Source of the DNA: a virus
Lineage: Duplodnaviria > Heunggongvirae > Uroviricota > Caudoviricetes
DNA: 19,211 nucleotides
Strand: one strand, 5' to 3'
Virus record (IMG/VR): IMGVR_UViG_2687453529_000007
Part shown: positions 2,690 to 19,211 of the stretch, piece by piece
How positions within the stretch are numbered: position 1 is the stretch's first letter
How the letters are laid out: every line of letters begins with the position of its first letter
Notes under the pieces: model-generated
The model's input: only the letters and a program-made list of their open reading frames with translations
What the model was told of the DNA's origin: nothing
The model's database searches: none
Made by a program: the position numbers and the translations under genes

Positions 2690-3037
2690 TTACGAATTAC
2701 TGCGGCGCTGTTGCTTTTCCGCATGTACGCGTTTCACAATCTTATAAATCCATTGCAGCGTCAGATTATATTTCTTCGCTAATTCGGCGTAGTTGCGCCC
2801 ATCGCACTCGCTATAGATTTGGTAGTCACGCTCCGATGCTCGTCCGGAGATCCCCTTAGGGAAATAGATGCTTTGTCCGCCCCAGTTACGCATCATTCGG
2901 TCGGCAATGGCAAAACCCACATTTTCTGCCGATGAACTGTCGAGATTGATGCTTTCAATCAGAACTTGCGATGCATGAAAAGCCAGGTCGTTAATGATCT
3001 CCGGTGTCCGGGCCATCTCTTTTGATTTTCGTATCAT
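2690..3037 (-). CDS. Mor/C-family (phage Mu middle/late operon regulator-like) transcriptional activator, 115 aa
   Basis: C-terminal region DGRNYAELAKKYNLTLQWIYKIVKR aligns with the Mu Mor helix-turn-helix region NGRNVSELTTRYGVTFNTVYKAIRR; GGAG RBS 7 nt upstream of the ATG; divergent from the lysis/tail genes. Confidence 0.75.
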   Translation of the reverse strand: MIRKSKEMARTPEIINDLAFHASQVLIESINLDSSSAENVGFAIADRMMRNWGGQSIYFPKGISGRASERDYQIYSECDGRNYAELAKKYNLTLQWIYKIVKRVHAEKQQRRSNS

Positions 3038-3574: not shown

Positions 3575-3862
3575 ATGAAAAAAGTCACTTTTCCCCGGCT
3601 TTCCGGCTGGCTAGTCGCTTCCGCCGCGCTGTTTGTCGTGATCGGCTGGACCTCTTCCGCACAGATCCCGGTCGTCATTTATAAACTAAGCCTGGTTTCG
3701 CTTTCCGCGGTGCTGGGATACTGGCTCGATCGCAGTTTGTTCCCCTGGGCACGGCCTGACTCTTTTAGCCCCTGGAAGGAACCTCGTTGCTGCGCGGCGG
3801 CAATGATTCGCCGCGCCATCATCGTTGCCGCCGTCTGTCTTTCCGTCGCCTTAGGGCTATAG
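3575..3862 (+). CDS. Small multi-pass membrane protein, putative holin (95 aa)
   Basis: AGGAG RBS 7 nt upstream; three hydrophobic segments; stop overlaps the start region of the downstream lytic transglycosylase (TAGTGATG). Function inferred from position. Confidence 0.45.
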   Translation: MKKVTFPRLSGWLVASAALFVVIGWTSSAQIPVVIYKLSLVSLSAVLGYWLDRSLFPWARPDSFSPWKEPRCCAAAMIRRAIIVAAVCLSVALGL

Positions 3863-3864
3863 TG

Positions 3865-4470
3865 ATGTGGCTGAAATATATCGCGTCTATGATTATTTTC
3901 GTTCTTTTCCCGCTTAACGCCTCTGAACCGCCGCGAGCCTCTCTGGCATGGCGAAACGAACTAATTCGTACAGCTCGAGAAGTCTGGGGGCTGAATGCTC
4001 CAGTGGCCGACTTTGCCGGGCAATTACACCAGGAGTCCGCCTGGCAGCCAATGGTACGTTCCCCCGTTGGCGCACAAGGTATGGCGCAATTTATGCCTGC
4101 TACAGCGACATGGATAAGCCAGTTGTATCCACAATTGCGTGAAAACAAACCGTATAACCCAACCTGGGCGATTCGCGCGCTGGTGCAATATGACCAGCAT
4201 TTGTGGAAAAACATCTCTGCGAAAAATGATTGTCAGCGTATGGCGTTTACCCTAAGCGCCTATAACGGCGGTCAGGGGTGGGTTAACCGGGATAAAAAAC
4301 TGGCTGCATCCAAAGGGTTAGATGCCACTAGCTGGTTTGGTCATGTTGAGCAAGTCAACGCCGGGCGCAGCGCCACGAACTGGCGAGAAAATCGTCGCTA
4401 TCCAAAGATGATCCTCTATCAACATGCCGCCCGCTATTTACTCTGGGGACAGGCAAGCTGTCTTCATTAA
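3865..4470 (+). CDS. Phage lytic transglycosylase (SLT domain) endolysin with N-terminal signal/SAR-like hydrophobic segment
   Basis: N-terminal MWLKYIASMIIFVLFPLNA hydrophobic stretch, then SLT motifs (LHQESAWQP with catalytic Glu, GMAQFMPATA, AYNGG). The track ORF 3787-4470 begins earlier with a non-ATG codon; ATG at 3865 sits directly after the holin stop. Confidence 0.8.
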   Translation: MWLKYIASMIIFVLFPLNASEPPRASLAWRNELIRTAREVWGLNAPVADFAGQLHQESAWQPMVRSPVGAQGMAQFMPATATWISQLYPQLRENKPYNPTWAIRALVQYDQHLWKNISAKNDCQRMAFTLSAYNGGQGWVNRDKKLAASKGLDATSWFGHVEQVNAGRSATNWRENRRYPKMILYQHAARYLLWGQASCLH

Positions 4471-4482
4471 TCAGAGGGGCCG

Positions 4483-4797
4483 ATGAAACTCAGTATCGAT
4501 TTTTGGGAAGTGATCTCCCTTATGCTTTCCTTCGTTGGATTAATGTTTGCTGCCGGAAAACTGCTGTTAGCACAAATTGAAAAACGACTTAATGAGCGTT
4601 TTGAGTCTCTGGAAAATGCCCGCAGGGAATCAGAAACAAGTTGGTCGAAACTGGAAAGAGAATTTCTCGAATTTCGTGCCGAGCTTCCGCTGCATTATGT
4701 CCGCAGAGAAGATTATCTTCGTGGGCAAGCAGTATTAGAAGCGAAGCTGGATGCCTTATATAGCAAAATCGAGCTGTTACAACGTGGCAGTTATTGA
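4483..4797 (+). CDS. Lysis accessory protein, Rz/i-spanin-like (N-terminal TM helix + coiled coil), 104 aa
   Basis: N-terminal TM segment EVISLMLSFVGLMFAAGKLLLA followed by charged coiled-coil-like sequence; position after the endolysin. No convincing embedded lipoprotein (o-spanin) ORF found by eye. Confidence 0.4.
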   Translation: MKLSIDFWEVISLMLSFVGLMFAAGKLLLAQIEKRLNERFESLENARRESETSWSKLEREFLEFRAELPLHYVRREDYLRGQAVLEAKLDALYSKIELLQRGSY

Positions 4798-4941: not shown

Positions 4942-5397
4942 ATGGAAATTTTATCTGTAATGAATTCTGTTGTGACCAGATTACGTGAACACAACTCCGA
5001 AATGGATATATTTATTTCATCTAAGGATGCCCAGAAATATATTCCACAGACACAACGAGTTGCAGTGATTATTAATTATAGCGGTTCTGTCTTTGCTACG
5101 CCCGAAAGCAGTAATGCCATCGTGCAACAGCAAATACTCCGCTTAACCGCCACCGTTATTGTTGGCAAAAATTGTGATGCATTAAACGCACTTGATCACA
5201 TACGCAGCGCATTGGGTGGCCTTCCGCTTCCTGATTGTGATCGTCTGCTTTGGCTTGAAAAAGAAATTAATACGGGTGAGAGCGGCGGTTTCTGCCGCTA
5301 CATCCTGGAAATGGCGACCAGCTCGCTGTTTATCGCTGAACAGGAAAGCACGGATCTTCCCCTGCTTACGGAAGTTAACTACGAGGAAACTGAATGA
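4942..5397 (+). CDS. Putative tail completion / sheath-terminator-like protein (151 aa)
   Basis: First gene after the terminator, immediately upstream of a small ORF and the sheath gene, coupled to the next ORF. Family assignment is by position only. Confidence 0.35.
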   Translation: MEILSVMNSVVTRLREHNSEMDIFISSKDAQKYIPQTQRVAVIINYSGSVFATPESSNAIVQQQILRLTATVIVGKNCDALNALDHIRSALGGLPLPDCDRLLWLEKEINTGESGGFCRYILEMATSSLFIAEQESTDLPLLTEVNYEETE

Positions 5398-5591
5398 AAT
5401 ACATCTACAACGGCCCAGCAAGCGGCGTCACCCTTGCCGATGGACAAGAAATCTTATTGTGGCCGAACAGTGAAATTGATCTGCCAGAAGACAACGAGTG
5501 GGTCATGACCATGATTGCCCGCAATCATCTGACTCCTGTCATCACTCAGGAAGAACAAAATAACGTAGAGGAAATTGTACATGGCAGCTAA
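5394..5591 (+). CDS. Small conserved phage tail-module protein (65 aa) preceding the sheath gene
   Basis: GAGGAA RBS; ATG overlaps the upstream stop (ATGA); 3' end overlaps the sheath start by 11 nt. Function unknown. Confidence 0.4.
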   Translation: MKYIYNGPASGVTLADGQEILLWPNSEIDLPEDNEWVMTMIARNHLTPVITQEEQNNVEEIVHGS

Positions 5592-7005
5592 TTATCTGCA
5601 CGGTGTAGAAACTATTGAAATTGAAACCGGCCCGCGTCCGGTTAAAGCGGTAAAATCCGCCGTCATCGCTTTAATCGGTACATCCCCCTGCGGTCCGGTA
5701 AATAAACCAACATTATGCCTTTCTGAAAGCGATGCTGCGCAGTTTGGCTCGACTCAGGCTAACTTTACGATCCCACAGGCACTGAAGGCAATTTATGACC
5801 ACGGTGCCGGTACGGTGGTGGTGATTAACGTGCTGGATCCGGCAAAACATGGCTCCAACATCAGCAATGAGAGTATCACTTTTGATGCTAACAACCAGGC
5901 GAAGCTCGCTCACCGCAATGTGCGTAACGTGGTACTAAAGCCCTCTTCATCAAATTCATCAACCTTTAACACCGCAGCATTTAGCGTAGATGAACAAACA
6001 GGCATAATTACCCGTAAAGGAGCCGACATTCCTCCTGGTGCGAAAGTTTGTGCCTATTATTCCTGGTGCGACCCTACAAAGGTCACCGCAGCCGATATTA
6101 TCGGTACCGTAAATACCGCAGGCGACCGCACGGGGATGAAACTCCTTCAGGACACCTATAACCTGTACGGTTTCTACGCCAAAATCCTGCTTGCTCCTGT
6201 GTTTTGTACGCAAAAATCGGTGACTACTGAGCTGATTGCACAAGCGGAAAAACTCGGTGCGATTACCTACATTGATGCCCCGATTGGGACAACATTCCAG
6301 CAGGTATTGGCTGGACGCGGTTCGCAAGGGGCTATCAACTTCAATACCAGCTCTGATCGTGCGCGTTTATGTTACCCACATGTCAAAGTTTACGATGGCA
6401 TCACTAACCAGGAAATTCTTGAGCCTCTCTCTTCGCGTGCTGCCGGGCTGCGTGCCAAAGTAGACCTCGAAAAAGGTTTCTGGTGGAGCAACTCAAACCA
6501 GGAAATTCAGGGTATTACCGGTATTGAACGTTCGCTTTCCGCAATGATTGATGATCCACAAAGCGAAGTGAATCAGCTCAACGAAAACGGCATTACCACT
6601 ATTTTCAATAGTTACGGCTCTGGTCTGCGCTTGTGGGGTAACCGCACAGCGGCATGGCCTACCGTGACCCATATGCGTAACTTTGAAAACGTCCGCCGGA
6701 CAGGCGATGTAATCAATGAGTCAATCCGTTATTTCAGTCAGCAGTATATTGATATGCCGATTAATCAGGCACTTATTGACGCGCTGACCGAATCGGTAAA
6801 TACCTGGGGCCGAAAACTGATTGCCGACGGCGCACTGCTTGGCTTTGAGTGCTGGTACGATCCGGCACGAAATTCACCGGCTGAACTCAGCGCCGGGCAT
6901 TTATTGCTGAGCTATAAATTCACCCCGCCACCGCCGCTGGAACGTCTGACGTTTGAAACTGAAATTACTTCTGAATATTTAGTCTCTCTGGAGAGCAATA
7001 GCTAA
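5581..7005 (+). CDS. Contractile tail sheath protein (P2 gpFI-like)
   Basis: N-terminus MAANYLHGVETIEIETG resembles P2 FI (YHHGVQVLEINEG) and the C-terminus LLSYKFTPPPPLERLTFETEITSEYL resembles P2 FI ([26 protein letters not shown]). GAGG RBS 9 nt upstream of ATG 5581; the track ORF begins at TTG 5575. Confidence 0.9.
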   Translation: MAANYLHGVETIEIETGPRPVKAVKSAVIALIGTSPCGPVNKPTLCLSESDAAQFGSTQANFTIPQALKAIYDHGAGTVVVINVLDPAKHGSNISNESITFDANNQAKLAHRNVRNVVLKPSSSNSSTFNTAAFSVDEQTGIITRKGADIPPGAKVCAYYSWCDPTKVTAADIIGTVNTAGDRTGMKLLQDTYNLYGFYAKILLAPVFCTQKSVTTELIAQAEKLGAITYIDAPIGTTFQQVLAGRGSQGAINFNTSSDRARLCYPHVKVYDGITNQEILEPLSSRAAGLRAKVDLEKGFWWSNSNQEIQGITGIERSLSAMIDDPQSEVNQLNENGITTIFNSYGSGLRLWGNRTAAWPTVTHMRNFENVRRTGDVINESIRYFSQQYIDMPINQALIDALTESVNTWGRKLIADGALLGFECWYDPARNSPAELSAGHLLLSYKFTPPPPLERLTFETEITSEYLVSLESNS

Positions 7006-7529
7006 TGGCTGGAAAAATTCAAATTAACCGTATTACCAACGCCAATATTTATCTCGATGGTAATAACCTTTTAGGTCGTGCAACAGAAATTAAATTGCCG
7101 GATGTAAGTTTAATTATGCAGGAGCATAAAGCACTGGGCATGGTGGGTAAAATCGAACTCCCGGCAGGTTTCGATAAACTGGAGGGCGAAATTAAATGGA
7201 ACTCCTTCTATCAGGACGTAATGCGTAAAACGGCAAACCCGTGGCAGGCGGTTGCATTACAGTGCCGCTCCAGTATTGATTGCTATAACTCCCAGGGGAA
7301 AGCGAATCAATTAGCGCTAGTGACACATTTAACCGTGATGTTTAAAAAGAATCCACTGGGCACATTTAAACAGAATGAAAACCCGGAATTCAGCAGCGCC
7401 TTTGGTTGCACTTATATTAAACAAGTAGTTGATGGTGAAACGCTGCTTGAACTTGATTATATGGCCAATATTTTCCGGGTTAATGGTGTGGATCAATTAA
7501 GTACCTATCGCAATAACATCGGTGGCTAA
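7005..7529 (+). CDS. Tail tube protein (P2 gpFII-like)
   Basis: Start overlaps the sheath stop; C-terminus NGVDQLSTYRNNIGG matches the P2 FII end NGVDRLEQHRRNIGL. Confidence 0.85.
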   Translation: MAGKIQINRITNANIYLDGNNLLGRATEIKLPDVSLIMQEHKALGMVGKIELPAGFDKLEGEIKWNSFYQDVMRKTANPWQAVALQCRSSIDCYNSQGKANQLALVTHLTVMFKKNPLGTFKQNENPEFSSAFGCTYIKQVVDGETLLELDYMANIFRVNGVDQLSTYRNNIGG

Positions 7530-15639: not shown

Positions 15640-17250
15640 ATGGCAAGTGAATTTTTTACAATATTAACTGCTGCAGGCAAAGCCAAAATTGCCTCAGCAC
15701 TGGCCGAGCAAAAACAGATCCGTCTGCAAACTATGGTAGTTGGCGACGGTAATGGTAAATATATCGAACCGACAGAAAGTCAGACCAAAGTAGTCCATGA
15801 GGTCTGGCGTGGTCAGCTCAATACATTAAAAATTGCGCCAGATAATCCGGCCTGGGTTATCGCAGAAGCGATTATTCCCGAACAAGTCGGAGGCTGGTAT
15901 GTACGCGAAGTTGGGTTACTGGATACCGACGGCACGATGGTCGCTATTGGTAAATTCCCGGAAACCTATAAGCCACGATTACCTGCGGGGGCCAGTAAGC
16001 AAATCGTTATACGCGCGGTCATGGAAGTCACCAATGCAGATGCGGTGACGCTTTTGATCGACCCTTCAGTCGTTGTGGCAACCAGGGAATATGTCGATGA
16101 CGCGTTGAAAACACATCAGCAATCACGAAATCATCCTGATGCGACGCTGACACAAAAAGGTTTTACGCAGCTGAGTAATGCGACTAATAGCGATGATGAA
16201 ACCAAAGCGGCCACGCCAAAAGCGGTAAAAACGGCATATGACCTGGCAAATAGCAAAGCTGCCACCAGTCATAATCATGCCTGGAATCAGATTACTGGTA
16301 TCCCTGATGGTACACTGACGCAGAAAGGAGTCGTTAAGCTTAACAATACAACAAATAGCACCAGTACGACGGAAGCTGCAACACCAAGTGCGGTTAAGGC
16401 AGCGATGGATAAGGCTATTGCTGCGGCACCGTCCAGCCATACCCATGCCTGGGGGCAAATAACAGGTATCCCCGACGGTACGCTGACGCAAAAAGGGGTC
16501 GTGAAACTTAATAATGCGACCAACAGCACCAGTACGACGGAAGCTGCAACGCCGAACGCTGTTAAGGCAGCGATGGATAAGGCTATTGCTGCGGAAAGCT
16601 GTCCTGTTGGGATGCCTATTCCCTGGCCATCTGATTCTGTACCTTCAGGCTACGCTCTGATGACAGGTCAGACATTTAATAAAACCTCCTATCCCAAACT
16701 GGCAATTGCATATCCATCTGGTGTTATTCCTGATATGCGCGGATGGATAATTAAAGGAAAACCATCCAGTGGGCGCGCTATATTATCTACTGAACTGGAT
16801 GGAGTTAAATCACATAACCATACGGGCAGTATTTCGAGTACGGACTTAGGGACGAAATCTGTATCATCAATAGATCTAGGAACAAAGAACACTCAGTCAT
16901 TTAATCATGGGATAAAAACAACAAATACAGCAGGCGCGCATAGCCATGATAGTGGTTCTGGCGAAAGTAGTGAGGGGGGAAAACCTCGGTATGGTACTCG
17001 TGATAACACAACAAATAATTTTGGTTCTGGTGAATCAGATCATGACAATTACAAATTTAACACATCCACGGATGGAGAGCATGCACATTCAGTTAATGTT
17101 GGCTCACACTCTCACTCTGTTATTTTAGGGTCACATAATCATTCAATTGCCCTTGGTTCCCATAATCACTCCCTAACCATTAATAATACCGGCAACACCG
17201 AAAACACCGTCAAAAATATCGCATTCAACTATATTGTGAGGCTAGCATGA
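15640..17250 (+). CDS. Tail fiber protein (P2 gpH-like N-terminus, repeat-containing shaft, His-rich C-terminal receptor-binding region), 536 aa
   Basis: N-terminus [18 protein letters not shown]...HEVWRGQLN...[20 protein letters not shown]...[14 protein letters not shown] is collinear with P2 gpH. GGAG RBS 5 nt upstream of ATG 15640; the track ORF 15517 begins upstream inside the gpI-like gene. Confidence 0.85.
16267..16602 (+). repeat. Tandem 168-bp (56-codon) direct repeat, two copies, within the tail fiber gene
   Basis: Two near-identical units encoding SH(N/T)[47 protein letters not shown], with a degenerate third copy upstream; matches the phage tail fiber repeat class. Confidence 0.8.
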
Positions 17251-17954
17251 ATACTTTTACCTTTTCCGATGAAGCTCAAATACTAACTGTATATAATTTT
17301 TCACAAGACTCCCAAGAATATATCGGTGAGTCTGATGCATACATTGCACCTAATACAGGCTTGCCAAATTATTGCACATTAATTTCACCTCCCGAAAAGG
17401 TTCCTGGTTTTACTCCAGTGTGGGAGAATGAAACATGGAGACTTATTGAAGATCATCGAGGCCAAACTGTTTATAACAAAGTTGATGGTAGCCAGCTTAT
17501 TATTCAAGAATTGGGCCAATTACCTGAAAATGTAACAGTCATTTCCCCGACAGGTTCTTTTGAACGTTGGGATGGTGAAAAATGGCAACCATCTATAACC
17601 GATGCTAAAGAGGCGAAATACTCTGCAATCAAAAATCAACGCGATGCCATCACAACCGATTACATCATCATCAACAACCATCACTTCCACAGTGATACAA
17701 ATAGCCGTATCCAACAGCTTTCACTCACAAAAATGGGAGCGGAGAAAAAAATTCCGCCAGGTTTAATGTGGAAAACTAAAAATAATGGTCTGATTGAGTT
17801 AACCAACGAAATCGCTGCCCAGTTTGAATCGGTCACCATGGATCACGATATGCGCTTGTTCGCAAACGCCCAGCGTCATATCGCGGCGGTGGAAGCACTG
17901 GACGATATTCAGGCGGTGCTCGACTACGATTATTCAACAGGCTGGCAACCATGA
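17247..17954 (+). CDS. Tail fiber assembly chaperone (Tfa / gpG family)
   Basis: N-terminal half [44 protein letters not shown]...[34 protein letters not shown] closely parallels lambda Tfa; ATGA overlap with the fiber gene stop. Confidence 0.85.
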
Positions 17955-18406
17955 GTAAAACCACTGTCTGGCTCGCTTGTTATAAGGGCCGAACAGAGCA
18001 CCGTGGTATTGCCCGACTGGCTGACTGGCTTACCCGTAAAATCACACGCGGTCATTATTCCCACTGTGAATTAGCCGTTAAGCATGGTGAAAAGAGATAC
18101 CTTTGTTACTCTGCATCACTGCGCGATCGCGGTGTACGCGGAAAGATAATGCCATTGCCAGCGGATAAGTGGGATATGCTGCCGCTCCAGGCTAGCCTTC
18201 AGGATGTGGAAACTTTTTTCCGTAAACATGATGGCAAAAAATATGACTGGCGCGGAGCATTAGGAATTATTACCGGTAATAAAGAACAGCGCGATCGCCT
18301 GTTTTGCAGTGAATTTTGTGCTGAATTTCTGCAACTGAAGGAAAGCTGGCGCTATTCTCCAAACCACTTGTACGCTTTAGTCAGCAGCTGGCAATACCAG
18401 CAATAA
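17951..18406 (+). CDS. Hypothetical protein (151 aa) coupled to the tail fiber chaperone; possible His/Cys permuted-papain-like (LRAT/NlpC-P60 superfamily) enzyme
   Basis: ATGA overlap with the Tfa stop. Contains GHYSHCELAV and, about 75 residues later, RLFCSEFCAEFL, loosely resembling the His-then-Cys motif order of permuted papain-fold proteins. The fold assignment is tentative. Confidence 0.5.
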   Translation: MSKTTVWLACYKGRTEHRGIARLADWLTRKITRGHYSHCELAVKHGEKRYLCYSASLRDRGVRGKIMPLPADKWDMLPLQASLQDVETFFRKHDGKKYDWRGALGIITGNKEQRDRLFCSEFCAEFLQLKESWRYSPNHLYALVSSWQYQQ

Positions 18407-18419
18407 ATCACGCCGGGCT

Positions 18420-19211
18420 TTATGCCCGGCACATTACCGTTTGATACAGCAAATTATCTAGCTCCCGAACATCTCCATCTCGACTGTCCGGTAAAATCGG
18501 TGGAATTTCCCCGCGCGCCAGTTCCGCGCGAATAAACGCATGCAATAAAGGACGGCGCAGTCCATATTCCGCTTCACTCGCACGCTGTTTACGCTCCAGC
18601 AATTCATCTATTTCTGCGCGTAAGGCCGCATCCAACTCACTTCCCGCCAGTAACTCGGCAAAGCGCATTGGCGGCACGCCTTTTCCCGCTTCAACCCAGC
18701 GTACGGCCAGCAGCGGGCGCAGCACGTAAAAGTATTTTTTCAGTCGAACTTCGTCGCCCTGTAAATAACCGCGAAAGTTTTTCTGCGCCATCGAATAGTA
18801 ATGCCAACGCGCGCGCAACGAAGAAAACCACATTGGGACCATTGCCTTAAGCGCCGTTATCGTTTCTTCATCTTGTTGATAGACCACCGGAGAATCCAGC
18901 CATTCTATCAGCGTCGGATTCGCGCCTTTCAATAATCCCAGCGCCTTACGCCACTCCCAACCGGAAACATCTAACTCGTCGTCGATAGGCAGTTCGATAA
19001 CATCGCGCGGTGACTCTACACGCAGATACCATTCTAGCGGATGGACATACAAAAACCGTACATCGTAGTCGCTATCGGGCGAGGCAAATCCCCAGCCGCG
19101 GCTGCCTGATTCACAGGCGTACAGCACTTTCACGCCATAGCGACGTTCTATTTCTTTTAACTGCTGCGATACCCGTTCGCGCATCGCAGCACTGACTCCA
19201 TTTAATGGCAT
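18420..19211 (-). CDS. Pol-beta-superfamily nucleotidyltransferase-like protein (263 aa), convergent with the tail operon
   Basis: N-terminal motif ESGSRGWGFASPDSDYDVRF matches the G[SG]-x9-13-D-x-D nucleotidyltransferase signature, followed by a helical C-terminal domain; start codon is at the window edge (19209-19211). Confidence 0.55.
   Translation of the reverse strand: MPLNGVSAAMRERVSQQLKEIERRYGVKVLYACESGSRGWGFASPDSDYDVRFLYVHPLEWYLRVESPRDVIELPIDDELDVSGWEWRKALGLLKGANPTLIEWLDSPVVYQQDEETITALKAMVPMWFSSLRARWHYYSMAQKNFRGYLQGDEVRLKKYFYVLRPLLAVRWVEAGKGVPPMRFAELLAGSELDAALRAEIDELLERKQRASEAEYGLRRPLLHAFIRAELARGEIPPILPDSRDGDVRELDNLLYQTVMCRA

Follow-up and report, generated by a model that had tools for sequence, protein, structure and literature searches.

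What does the last gene of a phage tail operon encode when its start codon overlaps the stop codon of the tail fibre chaperone gene? The question is raised by a stretch of Caudoviricetes DNA (IMG/VR record IMGVR_UViG_2687453529_000007; its full 19,211 nucleotides are called the window here), in which an open reading frame (ORF) of 151 amino acids follows directly on the fibre chaperone gene tfa. We find that this ORF very probably encodes a catalytically active member of the YiiX-like permuted papain group, a thiol enzyme that uses Cys119, His38 and Tyr98, and that fibre, chaperone and enzyme genes form a cassette whose order recurs across phages. A role for the enzyme as a late cytoplasmic accessory factor functionally tied to the fibre and its DUF4376-containing chaperone is, in our judgement, an even call.

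Scans of the 151-residue protein against Pfam, NCBIfam and PADLOC gave no match. Peptidase_C92 (PF05708) does not match it at E<=1, its gathering threshold of 27 bits not being reached, and matches only two of the 44 diverse family members in our alignment A1 (best E=0.0053), to which the invariance counts given below refer. A PDB search with the single sequence was likewise marginal (E=1.9), but the family profile matches 3kw0, a permuted NlpC/P60 enzyme from Bacillus cereus, at E=2.8e-5 and E. coli YiiX (2if6) marginally. The motifs of the family and of its homolog pair as SH/SH, DGGVR/DDGVR, GKKYDW/GKPYDF and FCSEF/ICSEF. The AlphaFold2 model of the protein (predicted local distance difference test score 84, predicted template modelling score 0.80) has a papain-like fold with a permuted alpha+beta core, in which the His lies on the N-terminal strand and the Cys opens the C-terminal helix. 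An earlier note, made from the letters of the window alone, had seen a loose resemblance to permuted papain-fold enzymes in the motifs HYSHCE (residues 35-40) and LFCSEFC (residues 117-123), and the profile match, the aligned motifs and the model all bear this out.

Close homologs number 89 (from Enterobacteriaceae, Pasteurellaceae, Moraxella and others), and an exhaustive profile search at E<=1e-10 gathered 1,941 clusters at 50% identity, nearly all of them stand-alone proteins of 135-170 amino acids. A few longer members (P0110, P0228, P0139, P0208 and P0215) were considered as chaperone-enzyme fusions and rejected as apparent mis-called starts or unrelated tails. On the alignments, the protein belongs to a subfamily outside Pfam coverage that has an invariant SHCE motif and does not conserve the canonical acidic residue of the triad at the aligned position. 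Sixteen columns are invariant in A1 (A9, Y36, S37, H38, E40, S56, D59, G61, V62, R63, K65, W74, Y98, C119, S120 and P137; 44/44). His38 aligns with the catalytic His49 of 3kw0 and YiiX and is the predicted catalytic base, Cys119 is the predicted nucleophile, and Tyr98 is predicted to be the oxyanion/P1-carbonyl tyrosine, the equivalent of papain Gln19. Ser37 and Asp59 map onto Ser48 and Asp68 of the Bacillus enzyme, which help to hold a lysine in its S1' site (Xu et al., 2011, PMC3142127). The His and Cys singled out in the earlier note are thus conserved in every member of A1; both are kept in remote relatives, where His, Tyr and Cys are retained in the post-chaperone proteins wherever those regions aligned, and the dyad is retained in gp28 of Alteromonas phage V22.

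The nearest known group is that of the YaeF/YiiX-like enzymes (YiiX, 2if6; BcPPNE, 3kw0; PF05708), although the protein is shorter than these (151 versus 180-214 amino acids), is encoded in a phage tail module and, unlike many of them, has neither a signal peptide nor a lipoprotein signal. Sequence inspection revealed no signal peptide and no membrane segment, and a lipoprotein signal was considered and rejected, there being no hydrophobic leader and no conservation of Cys10, which is Phe or Leu in 39 of the 44 relatives. LRAT, PLAAT and picornavirus 2A H-box-NC proteins carry an NCEHF-type motif around the catalytic Cys and are anchored in the membrane by their C terminus. Both features are absent from the 151-residue protein, which has FCSEF instead and is of bacterial or phage origin; structural scores to this family are far below those to YiiX, and we reject membership in it.

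Two other identities were discarded. PHROG 1128, which matches the protein at E=2.7e-58, is named "enoyl-CoA hydratase/carnithine racemase-like", a name that goes back to an old similarity note in phage SuMu. The protein has no crotonase (ECH) domain or fold, and the name, found also on SuMu_51 and on ORF70 of Pm86, is a propagated misannotation; the labels of related phage ORFs range from "hypothetical" to this one. Nor is the protein itself a tail fibre chaperone: it has a papain-like fold and no Pfam or NCBIfam match to Caudo_TAP or DUF4376, in keeping with the earlier description of the ORF as not a known tail component.

Judged from sequence comparison, the ORF is a real gene under constraint; the ratio of nonsynonymous to synonymous substitution rates (dN/dS) against another E. 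coli allele is 0.10, a value that stems from only 7 substitutions; in the comparison with Salmonella, dS is saturated and dN is 0.17. The listing of ORFs showed no notable antisense ORF over it. At the junction with tfa (GGCAACCATGAGTAAA), the ATG at 17951-17953 shares bases with the TGA at 17952-17954 that closes the gene of the 235-residue chaperone. The ATGA overlap reported in the earlier note is therefore real on direct reading, and it suggests that translation of Tfa and the enzyme is coupled. A promoter scan, which tests for consensus only, found no plus-strand promoter-like site inside tfa. A GC-rich hairpin begins a few bases past the stop codon of the enzyme gene and extends into the 3' end of the convergent gene; probably this is a terminator for both directions, closing the tail operon. 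An Rfam scan of 17000-19211 returned nothing close to any gathering score.

The neighbourhood of the gene is conserved well beyond the window. In phage records, homologs come third, behind the genes for a fibre and a small chaperone-like protein, in the Mu-like Haemophilus phage SuMu and in Pasteurella phages Pm86, Pmp12 and AFS-2018a, and the order is the same in Moraxella Mcat phages (one locus, Mcat25, was examined), Acidovorax phage AP1, Pseudomonas phage pAN and an uncultured myovirus whose homolog is annotated "permuted papain-like amidase enzyme". The similar ORFs UOF76987 of MW202455 and gp51 of SuMu also lie in a cassette ordered as in the window. Relatives are encoded in at least 537 IMG/VR stretches. 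Among the 79 viral loci that we collected on the enzyme and analysed for the upstream gene, nearly all have an ORF of 200-270 amino acids closing within a few bases of the enzyme start, and 39 representative upstream proteins gave profile matches to DUF4376 (22/39) or Caudo_TAP (7/39). Three distant members, each looked up, sit after a large fibre-like gene and a gene of 112-171 amino acids, one of them in a P2-like baseplate-fibre-sheath arrangement.

The pairing is equally evident from the side of the chaperone. A permuted papain-like gene lies directly 3' in all 15 phage records that match the C-terminal half of the chaperone, and in a reverse survey that started from the chaperone domain (alignment A3) and yielded 78 informative viral loci, the enzyme directly follows the chaperone in 68 by hidden Markov model and in 3 further, very divergent cases, or about 71 of 78 (~91%). 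Some of these post-chaperone genes belong to a sister branch that passes the Peptidase_C92 threshold, at 31-45 bits. Most paired chaperones that could be aligned share a C-terminal YD[YF]SxGW motif, the exceptions being V22 gp27 and the pAN protein, which is not of DUF4376 type; Mu U aligns poorly with the enzyme-paired chaperones. Homologs of the gene thus stand repeatedly, in one phage after another, directly behind a fibre chaperone gene.

A close parallel is V22, a lytic Alteromonas myovirus with a triad of fibre (gp26), DUF4376 chaperone (gp27) and gp28, labelled a "permuted papain-like amidase". The order of this cassette is identical to that in the window and gp28 is homologous to the 151-residue protein (hhalign probability 96%, E=1.5e-9), although it lies on a sister branch nearer Peptidase_C92 (19.8 bits). 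The V22-related phage A5 has the same module, and gp28 is missing from its listed shared proteins. A limited literature search found no account of a systematic pairing of the enzyme with DUF4376 chaperones; the SuMu genome and proteome paper does not mention gp51, and the papers on Acidovorax AP1 do not address the enzyme gene. The fold class is already known, as is the label "permuted papain-like amidase" on a few relatives, and what appears to be new is the DUF4376-chaperone pairing as a conserved context together with the SHCE subfamily that Pfam does not cover.

The window also allowed the cassette to be followed within a single bacterial species. Its DNA is identical to a chromosomal segment of many E. 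coli genomes, where it forms a headless tail cluster of Mu/P2-like type that has inserted between lysC and yjbD. Across 5,426 complete E. coli genomes, baseplate J was found in 194, tfa in 195 and the enzyme ORF in 195, each once and on the chromosome; the cluster thus occurs in ~3.6% of the genomes, and the enzyme ORF is kept in essentially every copy of it. In 47 of the 195 genomes only nucleotides 381-704 of tfa are conserved, the N-terminal half being not detectably similar, and yet the enzyme gene has at least 90% nucleotide identity in all 195. In strain A10, one of the 47, the enzyme has 2 changed residues alongside a longer fibre gene. We considered and rejected receptor-specific masking as a role for the enzyme: its constancy where the N-terminal half of the chaperone, and in A10 the fibre too, has changed argues against a receptor-specific function. 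The Salmonella LT2 counterpart of the cluster is "Def4" (STM4196-4218), in which the enzyme ORF corresponds to STM4198; Salmonella homologues have 77-78% identity to the 151-residue protein. Mentions of STM4198 in the literature are confined to hybridisation and typing work, where it counts as part of "Def4".

We infer an enzyme activity, an acyl-type substrate and a link to the fibre, along the following lines. The protein would be a soluble enzyme of the cytoplasm, competent for cysteine-based catalysis, from the circularly permuted NlpC/P60 group and nearest to its YaeF/YiiX type. A hydrophobic S1 pocket and thiol-dependent acyl hydrolase or transferase activity are characteristic of the permuted NlpC/P60 group. 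His38 would activate Cys119 for attack on an amide or ester acyl bond, giving a thioester intermediate whose carbonyl Tyr98 would steady; the acyl group is probably hydrophobic and fatty-acyl-like. The acyl would then pass to water, as in a hydrolase or amidase, or to an amine or hydroxyl acceptor, as in an acyltransferase, with the acceptor or leaving group seated in a polar pocket that may include Ser37 and Asp59. The enzyme is probably made only alongside the late tail genes, through its coupling to the chaperone, and its third place in a conserved cassette, together with coupled late expression, makes it most likely that its role is bound up with the fibre/chaperone module while phage or tailocin-like particles are being made; it might, for instance, trim the fibre-chaperone complex or modify it covalently. 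The target could be that complex itself or a lipid-like acyl substrate. One specific version, in which the enzyme adds or removes a fatty acyl group on a lysine or the N-terminal amine of the fibre or the DUF4376 chaperone, is a long shot; if true, lipid modification of the fibre would tune particle stability, membrane engagement or capping by the chaperone.

Several observations weigh against this proposal. The canonical acidic residue Glu64 of YiiX and 3kw0 aligns with Tyr53 (on YiiX) or Ala55 (on 3kw0), and position 55 is Ser in 33 of the 44 relatives. The invariant Glu40, Ser56 or Asp59 could replace the third catalytic residue, and Glu40, on the same strand and two residues past His38, is a plausible stand-in and a candidate for orienting that His. 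When a V22 fibre tagged with green fluorescent protein was expressed in E. coli with its chaperone and without gp28, it bound host cells, and the chaperone came off the fibre unaided (PMC7289586); since the V22 fibre is functional with the chaperone alone, folding, receptor binding and chaperone release do not depend on the enzyme. The chaperones of Mu and of Campylobacter CJIE1, which are also described as being of DUF4376 type, function with no such enzyme (PMC7882524). In our own survey, a few chaperone loci (L130, L171, L146 and L153) lack the enzyme, and two Ralstonia jumbo phages have a homolog, which in FLC1-1B, the one examined, lies away from any tail genes. Finally, adjacency alone can stem from shared recombination flanks.

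The strongest competitor is a late enzyme that acts on a host lipid, lipoprotein or cell-wall precursor and either aids lysis and release or reduces the trapping of progeny on debris, so that the position behind tfa would merely mark the end of the late operon. We consider this rather unlikely, yet much of the known chemistry agrees with it. Characterised bacterial permuted NlpC/P60 proteins are lipid-directed: Tox-Act1 is a phospholipase (PMC12994826), S. aureus LnsA belongs to a lipoprotein N-acylation system (PMC7387801), and YiiX, which like BcPPNE carried a co-purified ligand, has a fatty acid bound (PMC3142127). The function of the V22 fibre in the absence of gp28 would be expected, and in AP1 (holin, endolysin) and Pseudomonas phage pAN the gene stands directly before lysis genes, while at the P0088 locus the next gene has a faint Glyco_hydro_108 match. 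The constant neighbour of the gene, however, is the chaperone and not a lysis cassette: the window has its holin and SLT genes ~14 kb upstream, and in SuMu the homolog is followed by com and a putative adenine-methylase gene (the mom position). An enzyme of the envelope would also have no need of the tight ATGA coupling to Tfa seen at most loci. Tox-Act1 and TseH, which are effectors of type VI secretion systems, and LnsA work at the membrane or in the periplasm and are accompanied by immunity partners or set in a secretion context, and Tox-Act1 is toxic only in the periplasm (PMC12994826), whereas the 151-residue protein is predicted to be cytoplasmic, has no signal peptide, membrane segment or immunity-like neighbour, and is encoded in a tail operon.

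A third view, whose cargo idea the earlier note had raised as one possibility, is that of a classical moron or cargo gene for lysogenic conversion, exclusion, defence or an effector that serves the host and is unrelated to particles. The position after tfa is a known moron site, and the gene does close the tail operon behind tfa; the category given to PHROG 1128 is "moron, auxiliary metabolic gene and host takeover", other genes occupy the post-tfa slot in a few related loci, and the FLC1-1B homolog sits outside the tail genes. Against this, the gene has no predicted promoter of its own, begins within the tfa stop codon and is followed at once by the hairpin, and its GC content (47%) is ordinary among its cluster neighbours (42-54%). 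Its presence is not patchy, whether counted as 195 versus 194 E. coli genomes, 15 of 15 phages or ~91% of chaperone-seeded loci, it occurs in the strictly lytic V22, and PADLOC found no defence match. The moron reading thus comes out weak, and we regard it as improbable. Least probable is a non-catalytic pseudoenzyme or structural co-chaperone with a papain-like fold that partners the DUF4376 domain: the lack of conservation at the aligned acidic position and a translational coupling apt for a stoichiometric partner would fit, but pseudoenzymes usually lose their catalytic residues and here His38, Cys119 and Tyr98 are invariant and kept in very remote relatives, Glu40 could serve as the third residue, and in LRAT mutagenesis the third catalytic residue was apparently dispensable (PMC3142127).

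If the preferred reading holds and the fibre or chaperone is the substrate, the enzyme would represent a fibre maturation step new to phage biology, with possible consequences for engineered particles; action on host lipids would instead make it a late phage function of a new kind. Fibres and chaperones are the parts swapped when phages and tailocins are retargeted, and an enzymatic third gene, so far ignored or mis-named as "enoyl-CoA hydratase", travels with a large class of these chaperones in hundreds of phages, in the tail clusters of E. coli and Salmonella and in lytic V22. The pairing makes the function of this small gene directly testable in E. coli, in Salmonella LT2 (STM4198) or in V22, and offers a tractable handle on the YaeF/YiiX enzymes, a group whose biological roles are still largely obscure.

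The cassette and the features around it are collected in Table 1.

Table 1. Features of the cassette and of the surrounding tail cluster, in window positions.
Feature	Position	Strand	Remarks
lysC 3' end	1-924
Mor activator	2690-3037	-
Holin	3575-3862
SLT transglycosylase	3865-4470
104-amino-acid ORF after SLT gene	4483-4797		No Pfam match
Gp37	4942-5397
Sheath	5575-7005
Tube	7005-7529
Tail fibre gene, first cassette member	15640-17250	+	Pfam Phage_tail_fib 2.1e-59, Phage_fiber_2 repeats, Collar
Tfa chaperone, 235 amino acids	17247-17954	+	Variable N-terminal half, conserved C-terminal DUF4376 half
Enzyme gene, 151-amino-acid ORF	17951-18406	+	ATG start; product predicted to be a soluble permuted NlpC/P60 (YiiX-like) cysteine enzyme, 17.8 kDa, isoelectric point 9.5
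ATGA start/stop overlap	17951-17954	+	Read off the sequence; same 4-nucleotide overlap in most of 79 related viral loci
His38-Cys39-Glu40 codons (SHCE)	18062-18070	+	His38 and Glu40 44/44; Cys39 43/44
Tyr98 codon	18242-18244	+	44/44; aligns with YiiX Tyr115 (paper numbering)
Cys119 codon (FCSEF)	18305-18307	+	44/44; aligns with Cys154 of 3kw0 (BcPPNE) and Cys128 of YiiX
GC-rich hairpin between convergent genes	18412-18430	.	-17 kcal/mol, z = -3.2 versus shuffles; terminator-like flag on - strand
RlaP-type nucleotidyltransferase, convergent	18420-19211	-

Besides the genes listed, the cluster encodes a small membrane protein, a tape measure protein and baseplate genes ahead of fibre, Tfa and enzyme. 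The absence from it of capsid, terminase, integrase and replication genes makes it look like an R-type tailocin or a defective prophage. Our literature search found no link between tailocins and the lysC site and no described activity of the lysC-yjbD tail cluster. No spanin is recognisable in the cluster, and the 104-amino-acid ORF that follows the SLT gene could be an unrecognised outer-membrane lysis factor.

The start of the fibre gene agrees with the RefSeq annotation of an identical locus, and the C-terminal part of the fibre (window about 17050-17200) closes with repeated HxH and GSHxHS motifs; HxH-type motifs bind metal in other phage fibres. Tfa matches DUF4376 over residues 119-227 (E=1.9e-14) and Caudo_TAP over residues 71-134 (E=3.3e-07), as well as PHROG 1807/105 (tail fibre assembly). 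A mosaic joint lies inside tfa near window position 17627 (nucleotide 381 of the gene), and it agrees with the published architecture of these proteins, in which DUF4376 is the conserved C-terminal domain of Mu-type fibre chaperones and the variable N-terminal part binds the fibre (PMC7882524). In E. coli IMT16316 (NZ_CP023815.1), the chaperone match is split around an IS1 transposase and the downstream enzyme gene is intact.

Among the viral loci, the slot after tfa in L146 and L153 (2884-3288), in L130 (3006-3776) and in L171 is taken either by a DUF7338 protein or by a com/methyltransferase pair like that of Mu. On the IMG/VR contig 3300008717_000135 (L080, L083) the enzyme gene occurs twice, ~7 kb apart and each time behind an ORF of chaperone size, an arrangement that suggests two fibre cassettes in one phage. 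On the yjbD side of the tail cluster, the next gene past the end of the window and before yjbD is an SPFH/slipin gene (L001 7267-8394). No PADLOC defence model matches it or the RlaP-type nucleotidyltransferase, and these two genes, lying between the tail cluster and yjbD, are possibly island cargo.

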